DNA of 41,680 nt, from the IMG/VR virus record IMGVR_UViG_3300036905_000054; one strand, written 5' to 3'. Below the pieces are notes generated by a model that saw only the letters and a list, made by a program, of their open reading frames with translations, did not search any database and was not told the origin of the DNA. Below, in pieces: positions 4,369-4,513 of this stretch. The translations under genes were made by a program, and so were the position numbers. Within the stretch, counting starts at the first letter, position 1; each line of letters begins with the position of its first letter. The DNA comes from a virus.

Positions 4369-4513
4369 TTGAACTTCTTTTAAATGCGGGTTCTCCCCAT
4401 ACATAAAGATTCTCAGGCTACGCTTGAATTTAATACTTCTACGTTAACGCCTGATGGCTCGTTCCGAGCCAACTACTCTTTATATAATACTGATAGTTGG
4501 AAAATTTGTCAAG
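4369..4513 (-). repeat. copy 1 of a 145-bp dispersed repeat (promoter + conserved leader)
   Basis: About 95% identical to 14990-15135; the only differences are two small homopolymer indels. Confidence 0.9.
4484..4512 (-). promoter_or_regulatory. sigma70-like promoter TTGACA-17-TATTAT firing leftward, with a 7-bp inverted repeat (CCAACTA/TAGTTGG) straddling the -10
   Basis: Minus strand reads cTTGACAaattttccaactatcagTATTATataaagagtagttgg. The inverted-repeat arms lie at 4469-4475 and 4494-4500. Confidence 0.65.

Follow-up and report, generated by a model that had tools for sequence, protein, structure and literature searches.

A duplicated promoter-leader module and putative leader-peptide attenuators ahead of tRNA arrays in a peat-bog phage group

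Introduction

Many large phages carry dozens of transfer RNA (tRNA) genes, the control of which is largely unknown. We have analysed a viral DNA of 41,680 nucleotides (nt), IMG/VR record IMGVR_UViG_3300036905_000054 (the whole stretch is called the window below), in which a ~145-bp module made of a promoter and a structured leader is found twice, each time upstream of an intrinsic terminator and a tRNA gene. The attenuators that appear to follow this module are a more important result than the promoter-leader cassette itself. The window is a phage-like contig; its sequence recurs in numerous metagenomes from peat and bogs, where the contigs that carry it reach 178 kb. All its substantial open reading frames (ORFs) and all 19 tRNA genes are on the minus strand, and it encodes a major-vault-protein-like protein, a NAD-dependent ligase and tRNA-related Thg1, PTH2, RlaP and a PNKP-like HAD domain. 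Unless otherwise stated, coordinates are those of the window and features are on its minus strand.

The relatives used for comparison were L048 (close, site A), L052 (~93% identical, site B) and the distant L008, L012/L045 and L047, whose vault-like protein, where encoded, is ~70% identical. A second phage, called phage 2 (L016, L021, L027, L029, L034 and IMG/VR contig UViG_3300036876_000124), was found among metagenome contigs with a 19-mer of the leader.

Two copies of a promoter and a folded leader

The copies of the module lie at 4369-4513 (site A) and 14990-15135 (site B) and are 96.6% identical over 147 aligned columns (blastn, E ~1e-66). The duplication noted in a first-pass annotation of the DNA is therefore real and far beyond chance. 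That annotation allowed the copies only homopolymer indels, which was slightly too strong: indels are present (one of 1 nt and one of 2 nt in an A run), together with two substitutions, C/T in hairpin 1 and A/G in hairpin 3 of the leader. A repeat search returned the module as the sole long non-tRNA repeat of the window. The copies recur with identical differences in independent assemblies (L001-L007, L049-L051, L075 and L018), four of which carry both sites, five site B only and three site A only, which rules out an assembly artefact as the source of the repeat. All examined assemblies of this phage show both copies as fixed.

Two of the contigs deserve a separate remark. The differences between L018 and the window are all single-base deletions, which are probably assembly errors, and the 1-kb contig L030 (Ga0209905_1014951), which fuses window positions 15068-15111, 7898-8122 and 1121-1403, is probably a chimeric assembly.

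Identity between the copies begins 1-2 nt upstream of a -35 element. The leftward promoter motif, TTGACA-17 nt-TATTAT, matches the consensus at 11 of 12 positions in both copies and occupies 4484-4512 at site A and the same 29 nt at 15106-15134 at site B. Over these 29 nt the site A promoter is identical (29/29) to those of site B, of L052 site B and of the transfer-messenger RNA (tmRNA) gene of phage 2. With three mismatches allowed, the pattern occurs in two places only in the window, for 0 expected. Promoters are also found at the corresponding site A position in L008, L012, L047 and L048, and the same or a near-identical promoter heads at least four units in the two phages. Judged by its motifs, the promoter would be of a near-consensus sigma-70 type, and identical, near-identical or related ones appear to head tRNA-array units throughout this peat-bog phage group. 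Transcription is predicted to start at ~4477 (site A) and ~15099 (site B).

The leader which follows measures ~115 nt at site A (4369-4483, with hairpins at 4455-4471, 4413-4454 and 4371-4412) and ~116 nt at site B (14990-15105, with hairpins at 15077-15093, 15035-15076 and 14992-15034). Its minimum free energy structure consists of three hairpins, with z scores of -3.4 (copy A) and -3.7 (copy B) against dinucleotide shuffles, and the hairpins fold as first described. The prediction of a leftward promoter followed by ~110 nt of transcribed, structured, non-coding leader is thus borne out at the level of motif and fold. All three versions of the leader (copy A, copy B and phage 2) adopt the three-hairpin fold, with z scores of -3.3 to -3.7. 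The C-to-U change in hairpin 1 retains a G-U pair in the minus-strand RNA only. Hairpin 3 has, at its base, a U-A pair in the window phage (phage 1) and a C-G pair in phage 2, a compensatory change, and its tip is remodelled in phage 2. The leader hairpins have no U tract and none of them is terminator-like.

No ORF is common to the copies, their indels shifting the frame. A small conserved ORF inside the leader was considered and rejected, since it reads MYGENPHLKEVQGIRE in copy A, MWGRTRI in copy B and M-stop in phage 2. The absence of a conserved ORF, as first annotated, is correct inside the repeat; after it at site A, a conserved 40-codon ORF (orf40) follows.

At gathering score, a search of the window against Rfam 15 gave tRNAs only and no tmRNA match. 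At E <= 10 no match at either locus was centred on the leader, and the few weak matches extending into the site B leader are anchored on the terminator; the leader match envisaged for a covariance search was not obtained. Further copies of the module were found neither in ~54 kb of this phage nor in ~0.5 Mb of related loci, and nhmmer with a three-sequence profile detected no diverged copy in the ~0.5 Mb of fetched loci and ~9 kb past the window end. Window positions 3900-5100 had no match in an annotated phage collection (megablast). An origin of the leader in a bacterial host was rejected, as the nine 19-mer matches obtained with one genome per species have unrelated flanks and are due to chance; the same applies to 14 of the 20 metagenome matches of the leader 19-mer.

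Two other identities for the leader were discarded. A tmRNA remnant in the window was dismissed, as there is no tmRNA signal downstream of either copy. A miniature IS200/IS605 element or TnpB guide-RNA scaffold fitted poorly, since the leader is unlike the ends of the resident TnpB element, only two copies exist and the insertion at site B is not clean, 34 nt having been replaced. The TnpB-like gene itself (OrfB_IS605/Cas12f1-like TNB, 349 amino acids) spans the window end, from ~41408-41680 onward (L076 8164-9213); at this locus one assembly is 83.8% identical, versus >99.5% elsewhere, which indicates a variable mobile locus.

A codon-matched ORF precedes the tRNA-Trp array at site A

At site A the module is followed by orf40 (4235-4357), with a Shine-Dalgarno sequence at 4365-4370, and by an intrinsic terminator (4181-4211; stem 4211-4190, then a U tract) which adjoins tRNA-Trp(CCA) at 4105-4180. 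This tRNA heads the array Trp, His, Arg x4, Asn, Gln, Asn, Lys, Phe. The strong terminators with U tracts that had been annotated next to tRNA-Trp(CCA) and tRNA-Ser(GCU) are thus both found. Every relative shows the same site A order of promoter, orf40, terminator, ~1-25 nt and tRNA-Trp with the same array; the order of the tRNA genes is identical in L008, L012 and L047.

The ORF is conserved in L048, L008, L012 and L047. Compared with the L048 version, two of its substitutions are synonymous and one is not, and a single 3-nt indel keeps the frame, a pattern which indicates that orf40 is translated. Codons 13-26 (4280-4321) read K Q G E R Q R K H N N R W F, and the core in the relatives is RKHQG.VR.NQRNNRW[F/L]. 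Twelve of the 14 codons of this block are read by the downstream tRNAs, where the background frequency in long ORFs is 0.20 (p = 2e-7; here and below p refers to the best block of each ORF and is uncorrected for the choice of block). The best 14-codon block scores 11/14 in L008, 10/14 in L012 and 11/14 in L047, and ORFs of the L008 type carry CGA, CGT, CGG and CGC, which gives each of the four Arg anticodons a codon of its own.

An antiterminator can be drawn inside this unit. Its 5' strand, CGGGUCUGUUUCUCG (4258-4272), is inside orf40 and pairs with a 3' strand at 4206-4221, which overlaps the 5' half of the terminator stem. Since the alignment placed two clades out of register at the terminator, this pairing was studied by duplex and fold analysis of each sequence in place of an alignment consensus fold. 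The best partner of the terminator 5' half was the in-ORF strand just 3' of the codon block in 7/7 sequences, at -15 to -19 kcal/mol. Of four transcripts folded up to the 3' half of the terminator, those of site A, L048 and L052 were predicted to form the antiterminator helix; in the fourth, that of the phage-2 Thr unit, the helix was not clear.

The region 4184-4286 gave a weak match to the Trp_leader family (RF00513, 26.2 bits, E = 0.003, under the gathering score of 41). This match reflects shared architecture and not family membership: orf40 has a single Trp codon within a mixed 14-codon block and no tandem Trp, and it is followed by tRNA genes, not by trp biosynthesis genes. At site A, orf40, both antiterminator strands and the terminator are intact, so that the predicted attenuator appears complete, and the leader, which lies between the predicted start site and the ribosome-binding site, would only lengthen the 5' untranslated region.

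Matched ORFs in a serine unit and in a threonine, isoleucine and glutamine unit

Site B of L052 contains an intact ORF of the leaderless type, MNALHISSLSSSSNGAGIGVFA, which starts 7 nt after the -10 element (L052 508-576). Its serine codons (n = 6; TCA TCG TCT AGT AGC TCT) cover the four downstream isoacceptors GCU, GGA, CGA and UGA (p = 1e-4). As a separate observation, a 9-nt duplication of the 5' end of tRNA-Ser(GCU) (ACGGAAGTG ACGGAAGTG) lies between terminator and tRNA at L052 ~620-645.

Phage 2 has, besides its full module, a promoter-only copy that is 26/29 identical; a 43.5-kb phage-2 contig carries one of each. The promoter-only copy heads an ORF, MNQTSTTRITTTQCTTTGVRV.., containing the Thr codons ACA/ACC/ACT/ACG, the Ile codon ATT and the Gln codons CAG/CAA (L044 948-1037). 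In this phage-2 ORF (MNQTSTTRITTTQCTTTG..) 11/14 codons match (p = 4e-8) the tRNAs of the unit, in which a terminator is followed by tRNA-Ile x2, tRNA-Thr x3 (CGU, GGU, UGU) and tRNA-Gln. The Thr unit of phage 2 had no Rfam match. Its peptide (..TSTTRITTTQCTTTG..) resembles the Thr/Ile-rich thr leader of E. coli. Upstream of the remaining tRNA genes of the window, no other codon-matched ORF was found.

Modelled pairings and codon content together suggest that these units have the architecture of ribosome-mediated attenuation, in which codon-matched short ORFs downstream of the module would be the sensors. In each short ORF, the matching codons of the block are those read by exactly the tRNAs whose genes follow the terminator. 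If a ribosome stalled there for want of one of these charged tRNAs, the antiterminator strand would be left free to pair, and transcription would continue into the tRNA genes; a ribosome reaching the stop codon would unwind the antiterminator, so that the terminator could form.

The leader as a lineage-specific insertion

In L048 the site A promoter is joined straight to the Shine-Dalgarno sequence of orf40 (..TATTATATGAAGAGT joined to TAAGGAATACGAGAATATGACC..), ~105 nt being absent. At site A of L008, L012/L045 and L047 the promoter is followed by ~20 nt and then by the ORF, with no leader. Site B of L052 has the identical 29-nt promoter, then 34 unrelated bases where the leader would be. Comparison of these alleles indicates that the leader is not ancestral at either locus and was inserted. 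The insertion at site A is flanked by an imperfect direct repeat, ATAAAGAGT ... TAAAAGAAGTT; that at site B replaces 34 resident nt and is accompanied by a 10-nt deletion. The window and L048 share 96.6% identity at 3617-4379, downstream of the module. At site A the module sits at a mosaic breakpoint, because identity to L048 is only 84.6% upstream of it.

The module is also shared horizontally. In phage 2 the same promoter (29/29) and leader are directly upstream of a permuted tmRNA gene (RF04321, 74.4 bits versus a gathering score of 47; L021 7828-8041, minus strand, with the same sequence in L027 and L034). Hairpins 1 and 2 of the phage-2 leader differ from copy B by one substitution, and 5 extra nt are present near its start. 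No other DNA or protein similarity between phage 2 and the window was detected in ~20 kb sampled. The leader appears to be an insertion at this tmRNA as well, because no match to it was found upstream of 19 other phage permuted tmRNA genes, and those with a recognisable sigma-70-like -10 element (for instance L056 and L058) start ~8 nt after it. Synteny was also sought through a distant homologue of a 100-amino-acid neighbour (P0132) and abandoned, as that locus was not syntenic.

The phage-2 tmRNA gene was not called by ARAGORN, and its tag frame ends in ..AFAAAA. About 20 nt past its terminator, L021 7662-7742 (minus strand) matches CyVA-1 RNA (RF02965, 43.3 bits versus a gathering score of 41.4).

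On the alignments, spread most likely took place by recombination, homologous or illegitimate, at shared promoters; transposition does not fit. The cassette looks chimeric, with a promoter like that of L052 site B and first transcribed bases like those of L048 site A. The conserved module itself appears to be a recent passenger of the units that it heads.

Decay of the putative serine sensor at site B

In the window, site B retains a relic of the serine leader peptide (14972-14989, ..AGT AGC TCC AAC GGG G) with no start codon, an intrinsic terminator (14908-14937; stem 14937-14918, then a U tract) and tRNA-Ser(GCU) (14816-14905), followed by an HNH-like ORF and tRNA-Ser GGA, CGA and UGA (14234-13958). 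The leader took the place of the start codon and the first serine codons, and the 10-nt deletion corresponds to the antiterminator strand of L052, CGGGTATCGG. The antiterminator duplex accordingly drops from -16.2 kcal/mol in L052 to -7.3 kcal/mol in the window, and the probability of terminator formation is 1.0 in the window versus 0.65 in L052. Folding thus predicts that the site B sensor is lost and that a constitutively terminated RNA of ~190 nt is made. tRNA-Ser(GCU) would then be made through leak-through or through some property of the leader.

The HNH-like ORF of this unit (14334-14783) separates tRNA-Ser(GCU) from the other three tRNA-Ser genes; it has no Pfam match and contains TTGACA-16-TAAAAT at 14647-14620. 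A second HNH-type endonuclease ORF within a tRNA region is found at 221-766.

Other features of the window

The vault-like protein (7063-9516, 817 amino acids) has major-vault-protein shoulder and repeat domains, and >6000 metagenomic homologues were found at E <= 1e-20, some of them on contigs of 0.2-0.9 Mb. Positions 4969-5028 hold a perfect 15-nt tandem repeat, CATGTTCTCCCACGC, in at least 4 copies; an ORF near it is 51 or 61 amino acids long depending on the assembly, which suggests a strain-variable copy number. A 42-nt direct repeat at 29665-29769, its copies 63 nt apart, lies in ORF 29488-30258 and duplicates the peptide TEDDAAYKVGQ. Among the tRNA calls of ARAGORN, that at 2166-2236 has an undetermined two-base anticodon, 'ta', and that of phage 2 at L021 2359-2433 (minus strand) has the anticodon CTA and would decode the amber stop codon.

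Discussion

The full explanation that we favour, a promoter-leader cassette inserted ahead of downstream attenuators, is given a probability of about 0.55. Its parts are not equally firm. The tRNA arrays are very probably attenuated, and we consider it likely that they are metered by 'tasting' peptides which list the downstream isoacceptors, transcription going ahead only when the infected cell is short of one of these charged tRNAs.

Several points weigh against this explanation. Promoter, start site and termination are all predictions. The p-values are taken from the best block per ORF, orf40 has only one Trp codon, and the alignment consensus fold of the orf40 region is unclear. The conservation of orf40 could come in part from a real small protein. 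For the leader, covariation amounts to one compensatory pair and one wobble-compatible change, in two lineages with near-identical copies, and in the inner stem of phage-2 hairpin 2 a G-to-A change disrupts a predicted pair. The decay of the site B sensor beside an intact tRNA and terminator could mean that read-through is provided by the leader. The sequences allow more than one order and direction of copying, and a stabilising role for the leader is a guess.

That role is the most tentative part of our explanation. At somewhat less than even odds, the leader would be a passive, stably folded 5' end, giving protection or insulation, which senses nothing and travels with the promoter. Heading Trp, Ser and tmRNA units, it has no specificity for any one amino acid. 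Its strands pair well with neither terminator, the best partner at site B (-7.3 kcal/mol) being outside the leader, and it is dispensable in close relatives.

A more active leader is the main rival and, in our estimation, unlikely. It could act in cis as a processive antiterminator RNA, comparable to put or nut sites, causing read-through of the attenuator or tmRNA terminators as a portable override. Hairpins 1 and 2 are indeed adjacent and directly past the promoter, and the leader is found twice in one genome, each copy upstream of a strong terminator with promoterless RNA genes within 1-20 nt. The state of site B, where the unit's own antiterminator and sensor are gone and the terminator and tRNA-Ser(GCU) are intact, fits another source of read-through. 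However, relatives lacking the leader keep the terminator-then-tRNA arrangement, so that the leader is unnecessary for it, and the site A attenuator is still intact. Neither an Rfam family at E <= 10 nor a boxA-like sequence was seen in the leader, and its likeness to put sites concerns architecture only. A composite of tasting-peptide attenuators with the leader as a horizontally mobile, protein-independent put-like override, uncoupling tRNA and tmRNA units, has if anything a slightly poorer chance. It would explain the decay of the site B sensor, because an override leader would uncouple the unit from its attenuator.

The first-pass annotation took the module to specify either a small RNA or an attenuator-controlled leader. 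One part of each suggestion has survived, as a ~190-nt RNA is predicted at site B and attenuation is very probable, but the module is not the attenuator. A small-RNA gene proper, whose leader would act in trans as the 5' segment of the ~190-nt site B transcript or as a piece processed out of longer transcripts, with the other copies as extra sources, seems improbable to us. Site B does now join its promoter to a structured RNA that ends in a constitutive terminator (probability 1.0), the structure is unusually stable, and hairpins 1 and 2 are near-identical in two phages otherwise without detectable similarity. Yet the leader itself lacks a terminator and a U tract, its 3' neighbours differ at the three sites, and no target or seed was identified; the near-identity can be explained by recent transfer, and the absence of the leader from close relatives shows that it is dispensable.

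We attach about the same small weight to the possibility that exchanges of promoters swept the leader along as a recombination scar, neutral or mildly harmful, which simply knocked out the serine attenuator at site B. Its presence varies among close relatives, the site B event replaced 34 nt with a 10-nt deletion alongside and was not a clean insertion, and at site A the module marks a jump in divergence (84.6% versus 96.6% identity). A mere scar is difficult to reconcile with the three-hairpin fold kept in all three versions with z near -3.5, with hairpin 3, whose base shows a compensatory change even as its tip is remodelled, and with the fixation of both copies in every examined assembly of this phage.

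Quite improbable is a DNA operator, in which either an inverted repeat at the -10 element or the 17-bp palindrome of hairpin 1 (~+13 to +29) would bind a repressor, for example the tandem helix-turn-helix (HTH) proteins, and co-regulate tRNA and tmRNA units. The inverted repeat first noted, CCAACTA/TAGTTGG, does flank the -10 in all three leader-bearing copies, and the palindrome, TGGCTCGGAACGAGCCA, is perfect in copy A. The repeat is nevertheless not one unit: its left half, in the promoter spacer, occurs alone in L052 and at the promoter-only copy of phage 2, the right half is part of the leader insertion, and in phage 2 the halves are 5 bp further apart (half a helical turn). The palindrome is imperfect in copy B and phage 2, where RNA pairing (G-U) is kept and DNA symmetry is lost. 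Two small paralogous ORFs with weak HTH matches are nearby, which had made them the proposed binders. Their genes are present in L048, which is leaderless at site A, their HTH calls score under Pfam thresholds and the phage-2 loci showed no HTH homologue, all of which speaks against that proposal. The two ORFs (3521-3896, ~62 amino acids each) are located between tRNA-His and tRNA-Arg and are 71% identical over 72 nt.

Finally, the leader as itself the attenuator or sensor of the tRNA arrays, a reading suggested by its position between promoter and terminator ahead of the tRNA genes, is already contradicted by the comparative data and has almost no credit left: L048, L008, L012, L047 and L052 keep promoter, codon-matched ORF, antiterminator, terminator and tRNA without it, and its poor pairing with both terminators and its presence on Trp, Ser and tmRNA units alike offer neither a switch nor a specificity.

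If the cassette-and-attenuator explanation is true, one peat-bog phage group would use leader-peptide attenuation for tRNA arrays with the sets Trp/His/Arg/Asn/Gln/Lys/Phe, Ser and Thr/Ile/Gln, and phage tRNA genes would form a supply-on-demand system that reads the host's pool of charged tRNAs. The promoter-plus-leader cassette would move between units and between phages, sparing a sensor (site A) or destroying one (site B). Sites A and B thereby supply natural 'with' and 'without' alleles.

Comparison with known systems

The phage-2 promoter and leader form the 5' end of a precursor of the permuted tmRNA family RF04321. No member of this family was detected in the window, and no leader match lies upstream of the 19 other phage permuted tmRNA genes, which places the leader outside the tmRNA family.

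The put sites of HK022 and the nut sites of lambdoid phages are adjacent stem-loops past early promoters. The leader resembles them in occurring twice in one genome, each time between an early-type promoter and terminators, with adjacent stem-loops, a likeness of architecture only. It differs from them in that no boxA is visible, no similarity of sequence or model was found, and close relatives dispense with it.

As a mobile unit, the module comes near the promoter-early stem-loop (PeSL) cassettes of T4-type phages (PMC2839356, PMC4122927). Like these, it is a conserved intergenic unit of ~100 bp, combining a strong sigma-70-like promoter with stable stem-loops and repeated within the genome. 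Both are found at junctions of insertion, deletion or replacement between close relatives, are common to otherwise unrelated loci and plausibly owe their spread to homologous recombination between promoter repeats. In PeSL cassettes, however, a terminator stem-loop precedes the promoter, whereas the hairpins described here are downstream, transcribed and not terminator-like; and PeSL cassettes are present in many copies per genome, whereas two were found here in ~54 kb, with stable-RNA units and not ORFans as cargo. The module thus agrees with PeSL cassettes in its promoter and its junctions, and departs from them in having neither an upstream terminator nor many copies.

The units downstream of the module are closest to the leader-peptide attenuators of the trp, thr, his, phe, leu and ilv operons, with which they share a short ORF, regulatory codons, a terminator and alternative pairing. 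No report of leader-peptide attenuation of tRNA genes was found in the literature searched. The units agree with ribosome-mediated attenuators in having an ORF enriched in the relevant codons and, as predicted pairings, a terminator and a mutually exclusive antiterminator. They differ from the known examples in three respects: the genes controlled would be viral tRNA genes and not biosynthetic enzymes; the codon block of orf40 draws on seven amino acids (K, Q, R, H, N, W, F), in parallel with a mixed tRNA array, and is not a run of a single residue; and the antiterminator is the predicted default when there is no translation.

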